From an uncultured Acidimicrobiia bacterium (GTDB lineage Bacteria > Actinomycetota > Acidimicrobiia > Acidimicrobiales > SZUA-35), in the NCBI GenBank assembly GCA_965530755.1, contig CBESNA010000003.1, positions 76,848-140,847 on the forward strand: 64,000 bases of DNA, written 5' to 3'. This document shows positions 10,347 to 64,000 of the stretch, piece by piece (the first letter of the stretch is position 1; each line of letters begins with the position of its first letter). The translations under genes and the position numbers were made by a program. The notes beneath the pieces were generated by a model. The model saw only the letters and a program-made list of their open reading frames with translations. It was not told the origin of the DNA and ran no database searches.

Positions 10347-11133
10347 GACCAACGACCAACGGGCCGCACGTTACGCCGACCTCGAAGCGTCGTATCCGAC
10401 GATTTCCCAGGCCGACTACCGGCGGCGCTCACGTCGCTCCGTCTTGACCGGTGGTGCAGCAGCACTCGCCGGATTCGCCGGGTGGCGATGGATCCAGAAC
10501 GCGCCTGCGGATGGCAGAATTCCGGCACCACTTCGCGATGTCCATGAAGCGAACGAGTCGCTCTGGCGAGCACTGTTCCGGGGAGACAAGCTGGCGCCGA
10601 CGTTCGATCGCGGCGATTCCTCGATGCTCCGGGTCAACGGTCGACGAGGCATCGGGGAGGAGATCGATCTCGCTACCTGGTCGATGTCGGTCCGCACCGA
10701 AGGCCAGGAAATCGCGACCCACACCCTCGACGACATCACCGGACTTCCGAAGCAAGAGATGACGGTCGAACACAAATGCGTCGAAGGCTGGAGCCATGTG
10801 GTCACATGGGGCGGCGTCCGCTTCACCGACTTCCTCGAGGCCCATCATGCCGAGCGGCTCAGCTCACCTTCCGAGTTCGTCAGCCTGGAGACACCTGACC
10901 GCGGCTTCTATGTCGGGCTGGAGTGGGCGGCGATGATGCACCCCCAGACACTCCTCGCATTCGAGCTCCAAGGAGAAGCGCTTGACCAGGAACACGGAGC
11001 GCCCCTTCGACTCGTGACCCCGTTGAAGTACGGCATCAAGCAACTCAAACGCATCGGCGTCATCGAGTTCACCGACACGCGGCCGGCTGACTTCTGGGGC
11101 GAGCGAGGTTACGACTGGTACGCAGGCCTCTGA
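10339..11133 (+). CDS. Molybdopterin-dependent oxidoreductase (sulfite oxidase / YedY-MsrP-like), Tat-exported
   Basis: Twin-arginine signal YRRRSRRSVLTGGAAALAGFAGW and Moco-Cys region EHKCVEGWSHVVTWGGVRF. It is coupled to the upstream cytochrome b gene. Confidence 0.8.
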   Translation: MAETNDQRAARYADLEASYPTISQADYRRRSRRSVLTGGAAALAGFAGWRWIQNAPADGRIPAPLRDVHEANESLWRALFRGDKLAPTFDRGDSSMLRVNGRRGIGEEIDLATWSMSVRTEGQEIATHTLDDITGLPKQEMTVEHKCVEGWSHVVTWGGVRFTDFLEAHHAERLSSPSEFVSLETPDRGFYVGLEWAAMMHPQTLLAFELQGEALDQEHGAPLRLVTPLKYGIKQLKRIGVIEFTDTRPADFWGERGYDWYAGL

Positions 11134-11173
11134 TCGGTCGACGAAGGACGGCCGAACCGCCGGAGATGTTCGG

Positions 11174-11971
11174 TCAGACCCGAGCGTCGGCAGCGGCGTC
11201 GATGATCGATTCGTCGGTCGCCGACTCGAACACGACCTGCGACGTCTCACCATCGCGGCCGAGCTTCGATGGTTCGACCAACACGCCGATCTTCCACGTC
11301 TGGTCGTAGCCCAACGTCGTGCCGTGGTTCACATTGCGTCGATGGCGAAGGATCTGCGATACGAGGTTCGTCACCCGGATGCGGGCTGCATCCTTGGATT
11401 CCGGCGAGTCCACCATCTCGATCTCTCGGAGACCGAAGGCCTCCATGCCAGACGTCGATGCCGTGACAGAGCCGTCGCGACCCTTGCCGACGACGATGTC
11501 GACCCAGAGATCGAGAGGAAGACTCGGGAACGCCGAAGCCTTCTCCATGAAAGCCCTGCGGCTGATGAGGTGCGGCGTCGCCGGCCAGTACACGCCGAGC
11601 GCGTCCGGAGCGGCAGCGAGGGCAGACGACGTGATCTTCGTCGCCAGTGAGAACAGGTCCGTCGCACGACGATTGTCGATGTCGACCGAGATCACCATGT
11701 GCGACTGGTGGCGCATGAGTCCATTGATCGAGCCGGGCCACAGCTTGTCGGCCACCCGCCGCTCCGGGAAGTCTTCGTAGTCGATCGGCGACGCGACGTT
11801 GACCATCAGAATCGCCGCTTCGCCAAGAGCGAACCCGACTTCGTGATCGCCTCGCACGAGATTCTGCAGGTTGCCGATCTCGGGCCAGCGCCATCCCAGA
11901 TCGTTCACCAACAGCTTTCCGTCGATGTTCGGCAAACCCTCGAACAACACCAGAGCCTGTACCTCTGCCAC
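11174..11971 (-). CDS. Hypothetical protein
   Basis: 265-aa ORF with coding-like composition. I confidently recognise no motif. Confidence 0.55.
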   Translation of the reverse strand: MAEVQALVLFEGLPNIDGKLLVNDLGWRWPEIGNLQNLVRGDHEVGFALGEAAILMVNVASPIDYEDFPERRVADKLWPGSINGLMRHQSHMVISVDIDNRRATDLFSLATKITSSALAAAPDALGVYWPATPHLISRRAFMEKASAFPSLPLDLWVDIVVGKGRDGSVTASTSGMEAFGLREIEMVDSPESKDAARIRVTNLVSQILRHRRNVNHGTTLGYDQTWKIGVLVEPSKLGRDGETSQVVFESATDESIIDAAADARV

Positions 11972-56848: not shown

Positions 56849-59488
56849 TCAGCCGGCGTTGACGCGCTGCAGGGCTGCTGAGACCCACGCCGCGTTCGGC
56901 CGGTGTTCGGTCTCGAGGAATCCGAGCAACGAGTCGGCTTTTCGCTTCAACTCGAAGCGTCGCTGATTCATCTCGTCGTTGAACACGTCGCCTGGCAGGA
57001 GTGGACCCCGATAGATCTCGAGGGCCGCGATCGCGGCCGAGCGAGCCTCGGTCGCACGAGTCCGCCGTTTGGCGTCGACCTCGACGATCCGGGATTCGAA
57101 CTCCATGACGTCGGTGGCCACATGAGCACCGAACGACACCGTCGTCGGCTCTCGGACCACCACGTCGGTACCGAGATACTGTCTCGCCTTGACCATGACG
57201 TTCTTCAGCCGTCGCGTTCCCAGCTTGCGGTCGGTGCCTGGCCACAGGAGCTCGACAATCGACTCCACAGACGCCATGCCGCCGTTGACGGCCAGCCACT
57301 TCACCAGTTCACGTACGTGACCTTCCGGCAACTCGATCGGACCTCGAGCGCCGGATACCACGAGCCCACCGAACAGATCCACCCGCAACGGCGCAGCGGC
57401 CACACCATCACCGAAGAGCTCCGGCGCAAGCACCGGCAGGAGCTCGGTGAGATCCAGCCGCTTGGCGTCCTTCTCGGCCTGGGTGACATCGACGTCGCCC
57501 CCGGCCAACGCATCGGCCCGAGCAAGCTCGAGCTCGATCCGCCAACGTCGATCGTTCGGCACGATGTCCATATGGTCGAGCTCCTGCCACCGCGCCAGGG
57601 CACCGCGCCGGTCGCCGGAGCGGGCGAGCACGATGATGTCGGCGAGACCCAGCTCGACCGGGTTGCTGTCGTCCATCGCCTTCAGCGATTCCAGCAGGCT
57701 GACCGCCTCGTCGATCGCTCCGACCTGGGCGAGGAGAACCGCCAGTTCGGATCCGACCAGCACGCCGGTGTCGGTCGTCCAAAGCGAACCGAGGAGGTCA
57801 CGCGTGGTTCGTACCTCTGAGCGCAGCTCGGAGATCGAGCGACGACTCGCTGCTTCGTAGGCCGATGAGAGATGGAGGTAGGCCTCGAGCCATCGAATGC
57901 CCGATCCGGCGACCACGAAACTCGCCTGCTGCAGCGAGCGTCGATGGGACTCCCAATCACAACATCGAGCATCGAACATGGCCTTGAACACCAGCGTCAC
58001 GCCGTAGTCGAAGGTCTGGGCGATGGCGAGTTTGGCTGCCCTGTCGAGGCGGGTCTGTGCCTCCCGGTAGTGACCCAGGTGCCAGAGCGGGCCGGCCGCC
58101 AATGCTCGAAGCGCCTTGGCCGCTCGCAGGTTCTCCTGCTGGAACTCCCATTCGGCGGCGACCTCCACAAACCGATCGGCAGCTTCCTGCACGATGTGGT
58201 TGTCCCTGGTCTGTCCGAGGATTTCGGCTTCGACCTCGCGCAGACGCGTCGGCAGCGGTCCGCTGTGCCCCACCTCAGCACGAAGCTCGGCGAGCTTGTC
58301 GGCCGCCTCCTCCTGAGAGATGGTTCGGTGTCGGTAGAAGAGCAGCTCGACCGAGGCTTCCAACCGGACGTGGTCGTGAGCCACGCTCGATTCGAGTGCC
58401 AGTTCACATGCCTCGACGCTGGCTGCGATCTCGGCGAGGTTGGCGTGGATTCGGGCCTGCTTCAGCGCCAGGCCCGGGTGATCCGGGACGTGACCGGCCA
58501 GAACGCGAAAAACTCCGAGCAGATCTCGTTGGTCGCTCATGTCGATGACTCGGCCGGGCAGCGCCTCGAGCAGCCGACACGTCTGTTCTTGTAGGCCACC
58601 ATCGAGAAGCGCGCGGCAAGCTGCGAGCAGCTCACCGTCGGCGACCAGCACGGGAGCGAGCGCTTCGGCCGCTGCCGGGTCGAGCGCGATGTCGGCGATC
58701 AGCTCGTGGTGGACCGGATCGACGAACCGGAGCTGTCCAGAACGAGTGCGGTAGATGCCCGGAGCGTGAGGAAGGACCGTCTCGGCGAACTCGACTCCTC
58801 CGATCGCGACGGCCGCCGCATCGCTGAAACGATCGAAGTGAGCCAGCTGGGCCATCCGGTATCGATCGGCCGGCTTGAACGGCGTCATCAGTCGTTTCAC
58901 GATCCGCCGTCGAAACGGCGGCATACCGACCGATCCGACCAACTGATCGACGCCAATCTCTTCATCGACGATCAACTCGCAGCATGCAAACAGCCAGGCC
59001 GGCCAGCCGTCGCTCAGCTGCACGAGAAGCTCCGCCACGCCCGCGTCCACCACCGCATCGCCGCACCGGTGACGGCCCATCTCGATCACGTCGGGCACCG
59101 TCATGCGGAGCGCTCCGCCGTCGATCAGAACCGTGGGCACCGGTTCATCGATGAGGACATCACCGGACACGCCGACGGGAAGGACCAGGATGGTGGAGCG
59201 GCCGGCATCAAAACGTTGGACCACGGTGTCCCGCCACCCTCGAAGACCGGCGTGGAGCGGCGATCGCAGAATGGCGGCCCGAGGCTCGAGATTGCCTTCG
59301 ATGTCGTCTGGATCGACGATCTCGACCGGATCGTCGAGCCGGTCGACGAGCGCGGCCAGGAATCGATCGGCCTCGAAGCCCTTGGGGGACTCCATCACGA
59401 CCAGTCCGACGTGAGACGCCGCCCGGTCGAGCGAGCCGCCCCTGTTTCCGGTCACGTCACCCACCACGCTTCGACAACCAGCAAGCAC
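56849..59488 (-). CDS. Large transcriptional regulator: degenerate STAND/MalT-like N-region, helical (TPR-like) repeats, C-terminal SARP module (OmpR-type wHTH + BTAD)
   Basis: The C-terminus LRVDLFGGLVVSG..VESIVELLWPG..VDAKR..AIAALEIYRGPLLPGD matches SARP/BTAD. The N-region has MalT-like LRMTVPDVIEM...SDGWPAWLFAC. SPKGFEADRF sits where a Walker A would be. The start (GTG 59488) is uncertain. Confidence 0.75.
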   Translation of the reverse strand: MLAGCRSVVGDVTGNRGGSLDRAASHVGLVVMESPKGFEADRFLAALVDRLDDPVEIVDPDDIEGNLEPRAAILRSPLHAGLRGWRDTVVQRFDAGRSTILVLPVGVSGDVLIDEPVPTVLIDGGALRMTVPDVIEMGRHRCGDAVVDAGVAELLVQLSDGWPAWLFACCELIVDEEIGVDQLVGSVGMPPFRRRIVKRLMTPFKPADRYRMAQLAHFDRFSDAAAVAIGGVEFAETVLPHAPGIYRTRSGQLRFVDPVHHELIADIALDPAAAEALAPVLVADGELLAACRALLDGGLQEQTCRLLEALPGRVIDMSDQRDLLGVFRVLAGHVPDHPGLALKQARIHANLAEIAASVEACELALESSVAHDHVRLEASVELLFYRHRTISQEEAADKLAELRAEVGHSGPLPTRLREVEAEILGQTRDNHIVQEAADRFVEVAAEWEFQQENLRAAKALRALAAGPLWHLGHYREAQTRLDRAAKLAIAQTFDYGVTLVFKAMFDARCCDWESHRRSLQQASFVVAGSGIRWLEAYLHLSSAYEAASRRSISELRSEVRTTRDLLGSLWTTDTGVLVGSELAVLLAQVGAIDEAVSLLESLKAMDDSNPVELGLADIIVLARSGDRRGALARWQELDHMDIVPNDRRWRIELELARADALAGGDVDVTQAEKDAKRLDLTELLPVLAPELFGDGVAAAPLRVDLFGGLVVSGARGPIELPEGHVRELVKWLAVNGGMASVESIVELLWPGTDRKLGTRRLKNVMVKARQYLGTDVVVREPTTVSFGAHVATDVMEFESRIVEVDAKRRTRATEARSAAIAALEIYRGPLLPGDVFNDEMNQRRFELKRKADSLLGFLETEHRPNAAWVSAALQRVNAG

Positions 59489-60296: not shown

Positions 60297-60653
60297 TCAG
60301 GCTGCGGCGACCTCTCGAGCCAGAATTTCACCGAAGCTGCGGTCGGGCGATGCGGCTTCGGTGAAGTCGGCTCGACGAGGCGTCCGAACGCAGTCGACAA
60401 CCGAGACTCGATGTGTCGCGATGTCGCCGCTGCTGATCCACGACCGCTGCGGGGTGCGTCGAGCGGCCGATGGTTGCTGCTGACGACCTGCGAGGGCGGT
60501 GCACTGAGCATCGACCAGCCGCTGGAACGCGCCGGCGTTGCCACCGTGGTCGGGGTGCGCCGTCCGAGCGATCCGCCGGAAGGCGCGCTTGATCTCGTCG
60601 ACGTCGGCCGACGGGGGGACGCCGAGCAATGCTCGAGCCGTGATCTCGTTCAT
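60297..60653 (-). CDS. Small J-domain (DnaJ-like) protein
   Basis: LLGVPPSADVDEIKRAFRRIARTAHPDHGG contains the HPD tripeptide. 118 aa from ATG 60653. I saw no Zn-finger or DnaJ C-terminal domains. Confidence 0.7.
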   Translation of the reverse strand: MNEITARALLGVPPSADVDEIKRAFRRIARTAHPDHGGNAGAFQRLVDAQCTALAGRQQQPSAARRTPQRSWISSGDIATHRVSVVDCVRTPRRADFTEAASPDRSFGEILAREVAAA

Positions 60654-60777: not shown

Positions 60778-62277
60778 TCAACGACCGGCGGAAAACGCAG
60801 CATCGGCGATCGCCCGCAGCTCGCCAACGCGAATCTTCGTACCGTTCGCGCTCGGCGTCGTGGGAAACTCGTCAACCCTGACCACTGCGACCGGCACCTT
60901 GTAACGAGCAAGGCGGGCGCGACAAAACGAGATCACGAGTTCCGGATCTGGGTCATGGTCGGCGATCACGACTACGGCAGCCCGAACGCCCTCCGGTCGG
61001 GGCAGCGCCACCGCGACTGCCGCGCTGATGCCGTCCAACTCGAGCACCACTGCCTCGATCTCCGACGGATTCACGAGAAATCCTCCGAGACGGAGGACAT
61101 CACCGATGCGGGTCAGGAAGGTGAAGGTTCCATCCTCTTCGGCTCTGGCGAGGTCGCCGGTACGGAACCAACGCCGTCCCTCAGCTTCGCAGTGCGCGCC
61201 GGCAGTGAGTTGGATGTCGATCGAGGCTCCCCCATCGGCCAGGTAGCCGGTGAACAGACTCGGCCCGGAGAGCATGAGCTCTCCGTCGCTGCCCTCCGGC
61301 ATCGGTTCGTCGGTGTCCGGGTCGGCGATCCGGAATGCCGCAGCCTTCGACGCCACGGAGCCGCCGGCGCGTTCGCGTCCGGCCGTGTCCTCATGCGGGT
61401 CCCGGAGAGCGAACAACGCCTGCACCTCGCTCATGCCGTAGAGGCCGGTGAGGGTGACGCCACGGTCGGCAGCGAGCTCGACCACACCATCGAGGGAGGA
61501 GTTGAACCGCCCGTAGCCGCCAATGCGAAGAGAAGACAGATCGCGATCGGTCAGGAGCATTCGGTGAAACATGTCATCCGAGCCGTTCATCGCTGTGATC
61601 AGTTCCGACGCCACAAGGTCGGCGACCGCCTCGGCGTTGAACCGATCAGGGAGCCACACCTCGCTGTCAGCTGCGAGGGCGGCCATCAACGACACGAATC
61701 CGAACACGCCACAGAGTGGGAGGGCAACGAGCACACGATCGTCCGCGGAGTAACCGAACCGAAATGCGGCGTCGGCCGCGTGACGAGCGATCGATCGCTG
61801 ATCATGCAGCACCATCTTCGGCTGGCTGGTCGTACCGGAAGTTGTGAACACGATGAACGGGTCCCCGGGTTCCGCCGACTTGATGCGACCGTCGTCGTCT
61901 GGGATGACCACAGCTCCCGCCTCGACGACCCTCAGCGAGGATTTCCCCTCGACCGGACGCACTGCGTCCGGGTCGGAGTCGGTGATCACGAGCGACGAAC
62001 CCGAGCGGGCAAGGAGCGAACGAGCCTCGTCCGGCGAATACCGACGGTTCACCGAGACCAGCACGAATCGGCCTGCTGCAGCGGCAGCGATGCAGCGAAG
62101 GTAGGTCAGGCCGTTGTCGGCGTAGACAGCGACCCGATCGCCGGAGCGCAGCCCTTCGCGCTCCCAGGTTGTTGCCAGCCGGCGACCTTCCTCGGCCAGC
62201 CGACGACCGGCCACATCGCCGCTCGATGTGTGGAGCAGCGAAGCGGAGGATTCGAGAAGATCGAGCACCGTGAACAT
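60778..62277 (-). CDS. AMP-dependent synthetase/ligase (ANL adenylating enzyme)
   Basis: VFTTSGTTSQPKMV, YGMSEV, TGDLARAEEDGTFTFLTRIGD, NGTKIR. ATG at 62277. A hairpin GTCGGC-TCA-GCCGAC lies 6 nt past the stop. Confidence 0.85.
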   Translation of the reverse strand: MFTVLDLLESSASLLHTSSGDVAGRRLAEEGRRLATTWEREGLRSGDRVAVYADNGLTYLRCIAAAAAGRFVLVSVNRRYSPDEARSLLARSGSSLVITDSDPDAVRPVEGKSSLRVVEAGAVVIPDDDGRIKSAEPGDPFIVFTTSGTTSQPKMVLHDQRSIARHAADAAFRFGYSADDRVLVALPLCGVFGFVSLMAALAADSEVWLPDRFNAEAVADLVASELITAMNGSDDMFHRMLLTDRDLSSLRIGGYGRFNSSLDGVVELAADRGVTLTGLYGMSEVQALFALRDPHEDTAGRERAGGSVASKAAAFRIADPDTDEPMPEGSDGELMLSGPSLFTGYLADGGASIDIQLTAGAHCEAEGRRWFRTGDLARAEEDGTFTFLTRIGDVLRLGGFLVNPSEIEAVVLELDGISAAVAVALPRPEGVRAAVVVIADHDPDPELVISFCRARLARYKVPVAVVRVDEFPTTPSANGTKIRVGELRAIADAAFSAGR

Positions 62278-62392
62278 GGGGAGACACCAGCAAGCAAAAA
62301 CTCGTGTGTCAACCGACACCTCATGCGTTTCGCCGAACGTCCGATGGGTACGCTGTAATTCACTGCCAGCCGGGGTTCGGCGTTGCGGTCCG

Positions 62393-63133
62393 ATGCACTA
62401 CGCAAAGGTTATGGGGTTCGACTCCCTCCGATGGCACTACCGCCTCCTTCGCCTCCGGCGAACGGCGACGTTCTTCGGTTTCGGCGAGGCGAAGGACGCG
62501 GTGCGTACGCTGACCGCGATGGATGACCGAGGCGACGACGCAACACACGAGTTGTTCATCGTCGAAGGCGAGTCGGCGGCGGATGCCGTCGAGCACGTGT
62601 GCAACCCGACCAGCCAGCGCGTCCACCCGATCCAGGGCAAACCCATGAACGTCGTACGGGCTTCGGAGAAGACGATCTGGGCCAACGATCGCGTGCGGAT
62701 GTTGCACCACCGCATCGTCGGCAGCCCATCAGCCCATCTGGTCCCCGGCTACGTCCCGCTCGGCCGAGTGATCCTTGTCACCGACGCCAATGCCGATGGC
62801 GTCCACGCGAAGGCACTTCTTCTCGCGTTGATCGACGAGGTCATGCCGGAGCTCATTCGCGACGACCGGGTCTTCACGATCCGAGCCCCGACCTTCGGCA
62901 TCACGTGCACCGAACGCAGAACACCGGTCTTCGCCTATTCATCAGAAGGACGACAGAGCGTCATGGCTCAACTCGCCGACCGCGGAGCGACCAAACTGTC
63001 GACGCAGCACTACGCGGGCTTGGCCAGCATGAGCGCAGACGAGCTTTCATTCGCGTTCACCAACCGCGCAACGCGCCGGCTGTCCGCTCTGAACGCACCC
63101 CACGTCGCCGCTGCCAGAGCCGCACTCGGTTGA
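62393..63133 (+). CDS. Stand-alone GyrB/ParE C-terminal-half homologue (Toprim domain + tail), no ATPase/transducer region
   Basis: ELFIVEGESAADA (GyrB ELYLVEGDSAGGSA), QRVHPIQGKPMNVVRA (QAILPLKGKILNVEKA), VILVTDANADGVHAKALLLALIDEVMPELI ([30 protein letters not shown]), HYAGLASMSADEL (RYKGLGEMNPEQL). ATG 62411 is an alternative start. Confidence 0.7.
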   Translation: MHYAKVMGFDSLRWHYRLLRLRRTATFFGFGEAKDAVRTLTAMDDRGDDATHELFIVEGESAADAVEHVCNPTSQRVHPIQGKPMNVVRASEKTIWANDRVRMLHHRIVGSPSAHLVPGYVPLGRVILVTDANADGVHAKALLLALIDEVMPELIRDDRVFTIRAPTFGITCTERRTPVFAYSSEGRQSVMAQLADRGATKLSTQHYAGLASMSADELSFAFTNRATRRLSALNAPHVAAARAALG

Positions 63134-63136
63134 TGG

Positions 63137-63179
63137 GCACGCGGCTGATCCGCACGCGGCTGATCCGCACCGGCTTGAC
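63137..63179. repeat. 15-bp tandem direct repeat (2 perfect + 1 degenerate unit)
   Basis: GCACGCGGCTGATCC x2, then GCACCGGCTTGAC, starting 4 nt after the Toprim gene stop and upstream of mscS. Confidence 0.85.
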
Positions 63180-63248: not shown

Positions 63249-64000
63249 ATGATCGCTCGGTTGCTGGCTCGGGTCGACATCCCGAATCCGATCGTCGACC
63301 GCTCGTTGAACAGTACGGATTGGCTGCGTGCCGGCGCCACCGTGATCGCAGCGATCCTCGGGGCCATTCTCCTCGGACGCGTCGTCCGTCACTTGATGGG
63401 ACGCTGGATCGGACGAGACTCCGCAGGGCTGATCACAAGCCGGCTGGTGTCCTACGTCGCCTTCACGGTGGGTTTCATCTATGCGCTCACCAGTCTCGGC
63501 GTTCAGGTGGGGCCGCTTCTCGGCGCACTCGGACTCGGCGGTCTGGTTCTGGCCCTGGCGCTGCAGAAGCCGGTGGAGAACTTCTTCGCCGGAGTGATTC
63601 TGCAGGCCCGCCGTCCGTTCACGATCGGCGACTCGGTACAGCTCGGCGAGCACCTCGGACTCGTCACCGACATCGACTCCCGTACCACCGTGCTGCGTTC
63701 GCTCGACGGGACGACAATCCGGATTCCGAACGCGAAGGTCACCGACGGCGACATCGTGAATCTCACCCGTGACCCTGTCCGTCGAAGCACGCTCGAGGTC
63801 GGCGTCGCCTACAACACCGACCTCGACGTTGCGACCGCTGCCCTCGGCATCGCTGTGTCGCGGGTGCAGCGCATCGTCCACGAACCGGCCCCCTTGGTGA
63901 TGCTCCGCGATTTCGGCGAGTCGAGCATCAACTTCTCGATCTACTACTGGCACGACAGCGACGTCCCGTCCGAGTTGGCAGCTCGACACGACCTCGTCCT
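63249..64000 (+). CDS. Mechanosensitive ion channel (MscS family), 3' end outside window
   Basis: The frame is open from ATG 63249 to the window edge, which is why it is absent from the track. GLGGLVLALALQKPVENFFAGVILQARRPFTIGD and LDGTTIRIPN are typical of MscS. Confidence 0.85.
   Translation, partial: MIARLLARVDIPNPIVDRSLNSTDWLRAGATVIAAILGAILLGRVVRHLMGRWIGRDSAGLITSRLVSYVAFTVGFIYALTSLGVQVGPLLGALGLGGLVLALALQKPVENFFAGVILQARRPFTIGDSVQLGEHLGLVTDIDSRTTVLRSLDGTTIRIPNAKVTDGDIVNLTRDPVRRSTLEVGVAYNTDLDVATAALGIAVSRVQRIVHEPAPLVMLRDFGESSINFSIYYWHDSDVPSELAARHDLV

Follow-up and report, generated by a model that had tools for sequence, protein, structure and literature searches.

A stand-alone GyrB/ParE-type cleavage module conserved in several bacterial phyla and its possible place at the GyrA/ParC DNA gate

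Few bacterial enzymes have been studied as thoroughly as gyrase and topoisomerase IV, both of them major targets of antibiotics. To our knowledge their B subunits have always been described as fusions of an ATPase with a cleavage domain, and such fusions were the only form described in the literature searched. The closest experimental likeness to the protein reported here is 'topoisomerase II-prime': in 1979 Brown, Peebles & Cozzarelli, as well as Gellert, Fisher & O'Dea, reportedly described GyrA combined with a ~50-kDa C-terminal 'nu' fragment of E. coli GyrB, and this combination is said to carry out ATP-independent relaxation and drug-induced cleavage. The two share a B subunit cut down to its C-terminal half, and the mechanism of topoisomerase II-prime is that proposed below for the solo family; the nu protein, however, comes from the ordinary gyrB product as a fragment and keeps all the canonical residues and the C-terminal peptide, whereas the solo family has a dedicated gene. 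A separate C-terminal B-type polypeptide is also found in phage T4. The phage family phrog_7229, which we take to be T4 topoisomerase II subunit gp60, matches residues 124-224 of the 246-aa database call of our protein. T4 gp60 lacks the N-terminal Toprim half with its Glu and works with gp39 and gp52 from the same phage, while members of the solo family have a whole Toprim domain, no partner genes nearby and no close viral relative. Toprim nucleases, stand-alone or from defence systems, such as the OLD family, Gabija GajA, PARIS AriB, Wadjet JetD and RNase M5, are likewise small proteins or modules with a Toprim metal site, and they act on nucleic acids with no topoisomerase tyrosine subunit; the solo Toprim differs from theirs in being of the GyrB/ParE type with a type IIA tail, in having no PADLOC match and in lacking a universally linked ATPase partner. 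An 'orphan gyrB' of Mycobacterium smegmatis is an extra GyrB-type gene with no adjacent gyrA (PMC2691988). That arrangement, likewise in an actinobacterium, resembles the present one. The orphan gene described by Jain & Nagaraja in 2002 is said to encode a full-length GyrB paralogue with an ATPase, proposed as a substitute for GyrB; the solo protein has no ATPase and cannot serve as one. By fold and element order the solo protein corresponds to the C-terminal module of GyrB and ParE (B', 'GyrB47', TopBK, ParE30), whose defined elements are a Toprim core, a tail and a C-terminal alpha-beta-alpha seat-belt (PMC2761264).

The window, a stretch of 64,000 nucleotides from an uncultured Acidimicrobiia bacterium, contains on its + strand an open reading frame (62228..63133) that encodes a GyrB/ParE-like Toprim domain and tail. 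Its parts, and the DNA just ahead of it, are these:

62302..62438, + strand: conserved non-coding block, tRNA-like towards its 3' end, probably outside the function of the Toprim gene
62393..62518, + strand: extra N-terminal stretch in the 246-aa database gene call P0001, probably an untranslated leader
62519..63133, + strand: most likely coding sequence of the stand-alone GyrB B' protein (Toprim, tail and B'-CT), 204 aa plus stop
62564..62578, + strand: EGESA, read from the sequence, with the Toprim Glu as E16 of the 204-aa product
62633..62653, + strand: QGKPMNV, read from the sequence, counterpart of canonical PLRGKILNV, preceding the beta2-alpha2 DNA-binding loop
62783..62797, + strand: DANAD, read from the sequence, counterpart of DxDxD (first Asp D89 of the 204-aa product) with Asn (N91) in place of the middle Asp
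63011..63031, + strand: YAGLASM, read from the sequence, counterpart of the YKGLGEM hinge motif

The database gene call P0001 is 100% identical to the window product over 246 aa, the length also given in the original prediction, but translation from ATG 62393 is unlikely. Most likely the protein begins at ATG 62519, giving 204 aa rather than 246, because this fits the lengths and N-termini of the homologues, which are mostly 195-215 aa and start 10-15 residues ahead of HELF, and because the upstream frame is broken in the closest orthologous locus (L001), where a net indel of 31 nt between the two ATG codons causes the frame to be lost. At the DNA level the start of the 62393..62518 segment is conserved, a consequence of its overlap with the tRNA-like block.

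This is a genuine gene, and its product is just the DNA-cleavage half of a gyrase or topoisomerase IV B subunit. Its product matches the Pfam Toprim domain PF01751 (E 3.5e-6; 27.5 bits, above the gathering threshold of 23.1) and, collinearly, profile positions 419-610 of 641 in the NCBIfam GyrB model PRK05644 (E 5.5e-28). Matches to the parE and gyrB equivalog models have E 1e-20 to 1e-21. All these matches lie far under the curated cutoffs set for full-length proteins, the scores being 97.7 vs 740 bits for PRK05644, 73.4 vs 882 for TIGR01059 and 75.1 vs 900 for TIGR01058. In a sequence search of the PDB the top matches were GyrB/ParE Toprim-tail chains (E 9e-18 to 1e-15). An AF2 model (pLDDT 90.7) has every B' secondary-structure element, with Toprim core, tail and C-terminal alpha-beta-alpha segment all found, and Foldseek places it on ParE/GyrB Toprim-tail chains from DNA cleavage complexes with TM 0.77-0.80 and probability 1.00. 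Profile search and structure prediction confirm the original reading of a free-standing GyrB/ParE C-terminal half. The absence of a GHKL ATPase and transducer, also read originally, is borne out: no part of the product matches either, and full-length GyrB used as a tblastn query against the window finds only 62534-62902. No shift in charge or pI relative to canonical B' was found.

The protein belongs to a large family of the same build. In a profile search, more than 70 clusters of proteins of 166-294 aa rank above the first full-length GyrB, and more than 100 clusters with the same short architecture occur in Actinomycetota, Planctomycetota, Verrucomicrobiota and Pseudomonadota. Adhaeretor mobilis HG15A2, Rhodopirellula maiorica SM1 and the 4.9-Mb Acidimicrobiia contig JAWPMS010000001 are among the carriers. 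The median length in this solo family is 223 aa, with ~13 residues ahead of the Toprim domain. A neighbour-joining tree contains a split, found in the full data and in 24/30 bootstraps, that sets 159/159 solo-signature sequences apart from 40 canonical ones. Compared with eight orthologues, the window gene has dN/dS of 0.10-0.22 at dS up to 1.7, indicating purifying selection. Judged by their sequences, the stand-alone proteins form a monophyletic family derived from GyrB/ParE that is apparently uncharacterised: a full-text literature search found no published study of a stand-alone B' family, in line with the original statement that no characterised stand-alone GyrB C-terminal protein was known. 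All solo-signature proteins are at most 294 aa long, and every protein longer than 300 aa among the best 150 has the canonical signature, so none offers a domain fusion as a 'Rosetta stone'. A 1280-aa ORF in L059 was rejected as a fusion as well; it is an open frame that overlaps a further two giant ORFs, and no additional Pfam domain was found in it.

The EGESA, DANAD and YAGLASM motifs stand in that order, as originally read, and the family can be compared with canonical GyrB position by position; the percentages that follow set short homologues (≤300 aa) against long canonical ones (≥600 aa). The metal site and its surroundings are largely retained. The Toprim Glu, counterpart of the Mg2+ ligand ParE Glu433 or Mtb GyrB E459, is invariant (100%) in both groups. 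The Mg2+ triad consists of E459/D532/D534 in Mtb GyrB and E433/D506/D508 in ParE; the corresponding positions are E-D-N in the window protein and E-D-D in 79% of short homologues. Within DxDxD, the first and third Asp are kept in 99% of short homologues, and the middle position is D in 79% and N in 20%. Asn does replace the middle Asp here, as had been noted, but the alteration is confined to the window's Acidimicrobiales subclade and is not a trait of the family. In topo IV structures the Glu and the first Asp hold the catalytic-position Mg2+, and both are intact in the window protein. The G-K..N core of the PLRGK-type motif is strictly conserved, and few stretches of the family are as well conserved as the QGKPMNV region around it, which served as one of two scan patterns. 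Relative to PLRGKILNV this region carries Arg -> Gln and Ile/Val -> Pro: the Arg position is Gln in 89% of short homologues and Arg/Lys in 99% of long ones, and the Pro is present in 85% of short homologues. In ParE this Arg is Arg456, which lines the drug pocket.

The family differs from canonical sequences at the hinge, the drug pocket and the C-terminus. The canonical C-terminal LMG..V..RRxFI peptide (the last ~28 residues), which leads into the A subunit, is missing from the solo family; a median of 4 residues follows the end of the profile, vs 29 in canonical sequences. Near the DNA gate the family has lost the PLRGK Arg, the counterpart of ParE Glu475, the second Gly of EGDSAGG, the Ile of DGxHI, the first Pro of QPPLY and the Gly-Glu of YKGLGEM. 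Canonical QPPLY has become RAPxF, and YKGLGEM has become Y(R/K/A)GLA(S/G)M. The family has also not kept the acidic cluster that has been linked to handling of the T-segment. According to PMC2761264 the YKGLG pentapeptide does not vary among type IIA enzymes, but this hinge feature is absent from the window protein, which has YAGLA, and altered across the family, with Lys in 26% and the final Gly in 23% (Ala in 76%); after it the family has A(76%)-S/G-M/L/I where canonical GEM is 100% conserved. Almost every position conserved in the family is conserved in canonical sequences too, with only 2 columns flagged as family-specific, which argues for an ancestral surface and not a newly invented one. 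Next to the canonical module, the solo protein is a separate ~205-aa product of a separate clade that shares the Rossmann-like Toprim core, tail, seat-belt, Mg2+ ligands and G-K..N core.

The genes that flank the solo gene in the window are the following:

60297..60653, - strand: small J-domain protein gene, whose syntenic gene in L001 carries PF00226 DnaJ
60778..62277, - strand: divergent ANL-family acyl-CoA synthetase gene (NCBIfam PRK06164, E 1.9e-113), not a demonstrated partner
63249..64000, + strand: MscS-type mechanosensitive channel gene, continuing past the window end, assigned by L001 synteny

The L001 counterpart of the channel gene (10615-11640) has MS_channel Pfam domains. The ANL ligase and the J-domain protein had been put forward as possible partners, but both were rejected as such since they are neighbours in only three very close relatives: L001/L005 and L068 are the only loci where the ligase adjoins the Toprim gene (L067 is not long enough to reveal the family of its neighbour), and J-domain homologues lie near the gene only in those same loci among the first 68. 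The solo gene itself is kept across phyla, whereas these two neighbours are kept only in close relatives. Clustering of all ORFs within 7 kb in about 60 loci provided the partner search, and no GyrA-like, ParC-like, GHKL or other universal neighbour was found in 60+ loci; no cognate GyrA gene lies within the window. An ordinary full-length gyrB is near the solo gene in L040 only, and no other GHKL/transducer ORF is near family loci. Synteny beyond close relatives is lineage-restricted, with AAA-VWA-Toprim in one subfamily, where a MoxR-type AAA ATPase and a VWA protein form the one clearly operonic association, and a ProQ/FinO RNA chaperone gene upstream in Granulosicoccaceae. In single cases, an HTH-Fic module (L040) and neocarzinostatin-family genes with UvrD (L003) stand beside the solo gene; the Fic/HTH neighbours do not recur. 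A defence system was considered and rejected, as neither the window protein nor two distant family members had a PADLOC match and no defence neighbours recur across family loci. A phage origin was also rejected: viral contigs hold only canonical topo II, at ≤30% identity, with no family member recognised.

While these data establish the protein's identity, fold, stand-alone status, motif pattern and conservation, its function, with any binding to GyrA and every activity named below, is inferred. Tentatively, we favour a B' subunit that lacks an ATPase and acts at the DNA gate of GyrA/ParC. There the solo protein would bind the gate that the host GyrA (or ParC) dimer forms, bringing a Toprim Mg2+ site up to the catalytic tyrosine. 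The resulting A2B'2 complex, having no ATP clamp, could cleave and religate DNA but would not supercoil it, and would resemble the classical GyrA plus C-terminal GyrB fragment. In vivo it could provide an ATP-independent relaxing/religating activity, act as a GyrB competitor that lowers supercoiling, or both, and its remodelled pocket (Arg -> Gln, lost Glu) would distinguish it from gyrase at the site of quinolone-type poisons. In a wider form, which is possible but somewhat doubtful, the family would be a natural 'topoisomerase II-prime' working with GyrA/ParC in bacteria of several phyla as an ATP-independent cleavage-religation enzyme with drug-pocket residues unlike those of GyrB, loaded or remodelled in one subfamily by the AAA and VWA proteins. 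Its possible effects would be relaxation of DNA, damping of gyrase, or resealing or protection of gyrase-DNA complexes under GyrB poisoning or ATP shortage.

Several lines of evidence support a role at the GyrA/ParC gate. The protein is homologous to and collinear with the C-terminal half of GyrB, and its model has all B' elements and superposes on chains from cleavage complexes. The tail and B'-CT seat-belt are both kept, and the literature consulted describes them in type IIA enzymes alone (PMC2761264). The Mg2+ ligands and the G-K..N motif, which in canonical enzymes act only beside the tyrosine of GyrA, are strictly conserved, and the family is monophyletic and under purifying selection. 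Furthermore, there are precedents: DNA is cleaved when GyrA is combined with an isolated Toprim construct of Mtb GyrB, and cleavage is likewise supported by an E. coli GyrB(388-804)-GyrA fusion with no ATPase. On the other hand, the gate reading is weakened by the absence of a GyrA/ParC-like or universal partner in 60+ loci, by the missing LMG..V..RRxFI peptide, by the loss of several invariant residues near the DNA gate, by the altered YKGLG hinge and unretained acidic T-segment cluster, and by an operonic AAA and VWA pair with no obvious gyrase link.

Nearly as likely as a role at the gate is an autonomous metal-dependent nucleic-acid protein: a Mg2+-dependent binding, nicking or processing factor that would work without GyrA/ParC, perhaps as a homodimer, in the Toprim style of the OLD-family nucleases or RNase M5, with the tail as scaffold only. 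We regard this as a possibility open to doubt. The combination of kept metal ligands with the loss of many A-subunit and DNA-gate residues and of the C-terminal peptide fits it, as do the lack of a gyrase-related neighbour, the ability of isolated Mtb GyrB' / TopBK to dimerise alone, and the lineage-specific ProQ/FinO RNA chaperone (Granulosicoccaceae) and AAA-VWA pair. However, the protein has no similarity to PADLOC models of defence-system Toprim nucleases, the family has no new specific conserved residues that could form a nucleophile-activating site, and a complete tail and seat-belt have been retained under selection. Moreover, we know of no type IIA Toprim domain that hydrolyses DNA alone, which counts against an autonomous nuclease.

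Family-wide changes fall on exactly those residues that line the quinolone/dione pocket, the counterparts of ParE Arg456, Asp435 and Glu475, and could instead suit a decoy or protective factor that would titrate a toxin, antibiotic or regulator targeting the Toprim-tail region, or shield GyrA, with no catalytic role. Proteins that inhibit gyrase are a known, widespread theme (PMC10886550), and the single-case Fic and neocarzinostatin/UvrD neighbours are compatible with it. Nevertheless, a surface recognised by a toxin should be kept, not changed, a decoy does not need near-100% conservation of the Mg2+ triad, toxin-related neighbours do not recur, and neither viral contigs nor defence models contain the gene; we consider this explanation unlikely. 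Less probable still is a split GyrB/ParE whose ATPase-transducer half is encoded elsewhere and which reassembles in the manner of T4 gp39/gp60. In its favour, phrog_7229 (172 positions), a phage 'DNA topoisomerase II' family that the protein matches in part, shows that splitting of B-type subunits does occur, and mid-length fragments with the canonical signature are present in databases. However, no GHKL/transducer ORF accompanies the family loci apart from the ordinary full-length gyrB of L040, viral matches are ≤30% identical with no close relative among them, and the family forms a clade apart whose hinge and pocket residues have changed. A functionless, decaying remnant of a truncated gyrB/parE, which the short length and the below-cutoff scores to all full-length models might suggest, is effectively refuted by the low dN/dS at dS up to 1.7, the >100 short-architecture clusters across four phyla and the confidently folded AF2 model, and the original view that this is not the remnant of a locally disrupted gene thus holds.

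A conserved, multi-phylum family of cleavage halves that is under selection and has an intact metal site and a changed pocket and hinge points to an unrecognised layer of type IIA topoisomerase biology. The options include a natural gyrase modulator or alternative subunit, a rescuer or protector of cleavage complexes, and a new role for the type IIA Toprim fold outside topoisomerases; any of them, if true, would matter for supercoiling homeostasis and for how well environmental bacteria intrinsically tolerate gyrase poisons.

The DNA upstream of the solo gene has a separate character. What had been taken for a 115-bp shared promoter is in fact ~240 bp of non-coding DNA (62278-62518) that includes the conserved tRNA-like block, and a promoter scan found no sigma-70-type promoter. 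As a riboswitch, tRNA or leader of this gene the block was rejected: ARAGORN makes no tRNA call on it, Rfam gives no match at E≤10, its fold z-scores are ~0 on both strands, and the four close copies show no covariation. The originally noted inverted repeat GTGTC-AACC-GACAC is present (62306-62319) but lies inside the tRNA-like element, and it is not evidently an operator because the element also occurs in unrelated contexts. Diverged copies of the block sit beside unrelated genes, so it has no fixed tie to the Toprim gene. It is nearly invariant in four orthologous loci despite dS reaching about 1, and its 3' end equals the T-arm and acceptor strand of tRNA-Leu genes.

The open reading frame at 62228-63133 on the plus strand has significant GyrB/ParE Toprim similarity: its product exceeds the Pfam Toprim threshold (27.5 bits against 23.1) and aligns collinearly with the NCBIfam GyrB model PRK05644 (E = 5.5e-28), the match being confined to profile positions 419-610 of 641. 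The NCBIfam gyrB, Gram-positive parE and Gram-negative parE models also match it (E = 1e-20 to 1e-21); these scores, like that for PRK05644, fall far under the cutoffs set for full-length proteins. A PDB sequence search returned GyrB, ParE and Top2 chains only, with Toprim-tail constructs at the top (E = 9e-18 to 1e-15), and a PHROG search led to phage topoisomerase II families. No resemblance to GHKL or transducer regions was found in the ORF or its surroundings, and a full-length GyrB query matched the window solely at 62534-62902. Given the profile and PDB matches, the motifs in place and the missing ATPase and transducer parts, the original prediction of a free-standing GyrB/ParE C-terminal module is therefore confirmed, far beyond chance, and all the motifs that it named are found (read from the sequence):

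62564-62578, plus strand: EGESA motif
62633-62653, plus strand: QGKPMNV motif
62783-62797, plus strand: DANAD motif
63011-63031, plus strand: YAGLASM motif

The predicted length of 246 aa fared less well. P0001, a 246-aa gene call in the database with the window's exact sequence, begins at ATG 62393, but homologues are mostly 195-215 aa, with the N-terminus 10-15 residues ahead of the HELF strand. Between the two candidate starts, the window and L001, the closest orthologous locus (90% amino-acid identity), show a net difference of 31 nt, which breaks the upstream frame in L001, and the DNA upstream of 62440 has a non-coding conservation pattern, with invariant blocks flanking a short hypervariable patch. 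For these reasons the ATG at 62393 is disfavored, and the CDS is likely 62519-63133, encoding 204 aa.

An AlphaFold2 model built from a 21-sequence family alignment (mean pLDDT 90.7, pTM 0.85) consists of a Toprim beta-alpha core, then a three-stranded sheet and helix (tail), then a terminal alpha-beta-alpha segment. This is the element order of M. tuberculosis GyrB', described as Toprim, Tail and B'-CT "seat-belt" (PMC2761264; PMC2923608). Foldseek superposed the model on ParE/GyrB chains of DNA-cleavage complexes in the PDB (TM 0.77-0.80, probability 1.00), bearing out the structural interpretation made from the sequence.

Column-by-column comparison of 162 short homologues (at most 300 aa) with 19 long canonical GyrB/ParE proteins (at least 600 aa) separated what the solo family keeps from what it has changed. 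Both groups retain the Glu of EGxSA (100%), the G-K and N of PLRGK..N, the first and third Asp of DxDxD (99%), the Gly and His of DGxH, one Pro of QPPLY, the G-L of YKGLG and one seat-belt Arg. The PLRGK Arg/Lys is replaced by Gln in 89% of the short homologues, and the Ile/Val next after that position by Pro in 85%. The solo family has lost the second Gly of EGDSAGG, the Thr of WETT and the Glu matching S. pneumoniae ParE Glu475 (100% in canonical proteins), and has Ala or Cys for the Ile of DGxHI, RAPxF for QPPLY, and Y(R/K/A)GLA(S/G)(M/L/I) for YKGLGEM. Canonical proteins extend a median of 29 residues past the profile end, against 4 in solo proteins, and their C-terminal stretch carries a conserved LMG..V..R(R/K)x(F/Y)I peptide. 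The altered metal motif holds for the window itself, but not as a family-wide change, since Asn replaces the middle Asp of DxDxD in 20% of short homologues, all from the window's Acidimicrobiales subclade. In topo IV structures, the Mg2+ ligands at the catalytic position are Glu433 and Asp506 (the first Asp), those at the non-catalytic position are Asp506 and Asp508 (the second Asp), and the quinazolinedione pocket is lined by ParE Arg456, Asp435, Glu474, and Glu475 (PMC2893164); the M. tuberculosis GyrB triad is E459/D532/D534 (PMC2923608). YKGLG has been described as an invariant hinge, and an acidic cluster of B'-CT is implicated in T-segment handling (PMC2761264); no conservation of this cluster was found in the solo family. 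Judged by the alignment, strong constraint acts on the metal site and on the DNA-contact motif's core, and features of strand passage, the drug pocket and, by inference, A-subunit tethering are lost or remodelled.

A word-indexed search returned 52 homologues, every one short (148-293 aa). When 1.84 billion cluster representatives were scanned in full with the family profile (HMMER), the first full-length GyrB (P0129, 671 aa, 163 bits) ranked below more than 70 clusters whose proteins are 166-294 aa long. Scanning one genome per species gave 62 solo Toprim loci, where the gene stands as an ORF of its own, about 200-230 aa long. The majority are Acidimicrobiales/Acidimicrobiia MAGs; other carriers are Pirellulaceae and further Planctomycetota (including the isolates Rhodopirellula maiorica SM1 and Adhaeretor mobilis HG15A2), Verrucomicrobiales, Granulosicoccaceae and further Gammaproteobacteria, and Thiobacillus and further Betaproteobacteria. 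A neighbor-joining tree of 209 dereplicated sequences split all 159 solo-signature from all 40 canonical proteins, both with the complete data set and in 24 of 30 bootstraps. No close relatives were found in a search of viral contigs, nor any fusion of a solo-signature protein to another domain. The window gene has a dN/dS of 0.10-0.22 against eight orthologues (dS 0.38 to 1.7), which, with the many short clusters and the separate side of the tree, speaks against a recent truncation under relaxed selection; by these comparisons the gene is a member of a family and not a remnant. One Acidimicrobiales MAG (CALKGG01) holds two solo paralogues (L042 and L050), one window-type (49% identity) and one of a subfamily linked to AAA and VWA genes (38%); the two subfamilies thus occur side by side, and redundancy between them is improbable.

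The proposed partnership with the ANL ligase and J-domain genes does not extend to the family. In the window, the solo gene lies among a divergent ANL-family acyl-CoA synthetase, a small J-domain protein, an 879-aa protein and a downstream MscS channel. This arrangement is common to the loci L001 and L005 and partly to L068; L067 has the divergent layout, on a contig that ends too soon to identify the upstream gene. The remaining members have unrelated neighborhoods, and clustering of all neighboring ORFs found no universal partner. Two other settings recur. In ten loci, a ProA-like dehydrogenase, an AAA ATPase, a VWA_CoxE protein and, last, the solo Toprim gene are contiguous on one strand, the Toprim ORF starting at most 11 nt from the VWA stop or overlapping it. 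These solo genes form a sister subfamily (about 38% identity) carried by Acidimicrobiales, a single Acidimicrobiia genome and a bin assigned to Verrucomicrobiales; the top NCBIfam families are MadB for the ATPase and MadC for the VWA protein, neither match reaching its cutoff. A gene for a ProQ/FinO-family RNA chaperone is immediately upstream on the same strand in Granulosicoccaceae and in a Chromatiales genome associated with Bugula, and in most such loci a PA14/PilY1/VWA protein gene (1072-1576 aa) lies downstream on the opposite strand.

56849-59488, minus strand: 879-aa ORF adjoining the J-domain gene, 93% identical in L001
L021, L023-L029 and L034 among loci (e.g., L028 2843-5212; L029 6640-7545): AAA-VWA-Toprim array
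L035, L041, L046-L049, L055, L060, L061 and L063 (e.g., L061 9317-9859): ProQ/FinO gene upstream

NCBIfam gave no match for the 879-aa ORF, and precomputed Pfam annotation gives its syntenic L001 gene no domain, so neither assigns this large conserved protein to a family. The spacer from Toprim stop to MscS start is 115 nt in the window, with two tandem copies of the 15-nt unit CACGCGGCTGATCCG at 63138-63167; their L001 counterparts overlap by 4 nt, which makes the spacer an insertion in the window's lineage. Two further contexts showed no recurrence among other family loci. In a Thiobacillus MAG (L040, 2431-10591), three consecutive plus-strand ORFs lie 2.2 kb upstream of the solo gene: two of 458 and 368 aa, presumed from order and length alone to be dnaA and dnaN, and then a GyrB of canonical full length (834 aa). 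The solo gene and an HTH (XRE)-Fic/DOC pair are divergently oriented, and Fic toxins include enzymes that adenylylate GyrB/ParE. In an Acidimicrobiales MAG (L003 8915-11910, the same as L004 and L013), neocarzinostatin-family (PF00960) genes flank the solo gene on both sides, with a UvrD-type helicase 2 kb upstream.

As to function, we tentatively favor a protein that still acts as a B' module at the GyrA/ParC DNA gate, because the B' architecture specific to type IIA enzymes is complete, because the metal ligands remain along with the core of the DNA-contact motif, because the positions conserved in the family fall within the canonical conserved set and do not mark a new site, and because isolated B' constructs support DNA cleavage together with GyrA (PMC2923608 among sources). 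Against it stand the absent C-terminal peptide, the remodelled gate-proximal residues, the changed hinge and the lack of any gyrase-linked context whatever. Having no ATPase clamp, such a complex would cleave and religate or relax DNA, or else compete with GyrB, as reported for topoisomerase II-prime (GyrA with a C-terminal GyrB fragment). An autonomous Mg2+-dependent protein that binds or cleaves nucleic acid is nearly as plausible. A decoy or protective role seems unlikely beside these two, and a split-subunit arrangement considerably more so; a dead remnant is scarcely credible at the dN/dS observed.

A full-text literature search turned up no description of a stand-alone GyrB C-terminal protein, in line with the original prediction. 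The closest named entities are the GyrB/ParE B' module itself, the proteolytic nu fragment of topoisomerase II-prime, the full-length "orphan gyrB" of M. smegmatis, and T4 gp60. By its sequence the protein belongs to the Toprim superfamily, but it lacks the ATPase, YKGLG, the PLRGK Arg and the C-terminal peptide and misses the curated cutoffs that define GyrB/ParE; it is therefore best filed as a distinct GyrB-derived family and not as GyrB.

Upstream of the gene lies a conserved non-coding block, near-invariant in four orthologous loci even at dS of about 1, where synonymous sites are near saturation:

62302-62438, plus strand: conserved non-coding block (DNA conservation across loci)
L001 9815-9950; L067 402-536; L068 3525-3660: copies of the block
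L152 3555-3687 (minus strand); L155 3472-3566; L160 468-588 (minus strand): copies of the block

Its 3' part of about 73 nt, ending in GGGGTTCGACTCCCTCCGATGGCAC, is tRNA-like, with an acceptor-like pairing, a variable hairpin, and a perfect T-arm and 3' acceptor strand resembling those of tRNA-Leu genes. A metagenome scan with a 23-nt pattern covering GGGGTTCGACTCCCTCCGATGGCAC, degenerate at one position, gave 17 exact matches. In 14 of these the similarity reaches no further into the element, and ARAGORN called a tRNA-Leu ending at the match in at least six of those 14 loci (all six among the matches listed); ARAGORN and Rfam found nothing in the window's own block. Diverged copies lie next to unrelated genes in three metagenome contigs, their central hairpin pairing kept with different sequences, apparently compensatory by eye. 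The block looks more like a tRNA-like element in its own right, or a conserved relic of tRNA origin, than like a regulator of the Toprim gene. The inverted repeat reported at 62306-62319 is present but falls inside the block, which gives it no evident role as an operator of the Toprim gene. On the minus strand it is followed by ACGAGTTTTT, hence a weak terminator-like score just upstream of the ANL ligase start codon. Its L152 counterpart, the hairpin GTGTCA-CTTC-TGACAC, occupies the equal relative position within that copy of the element.
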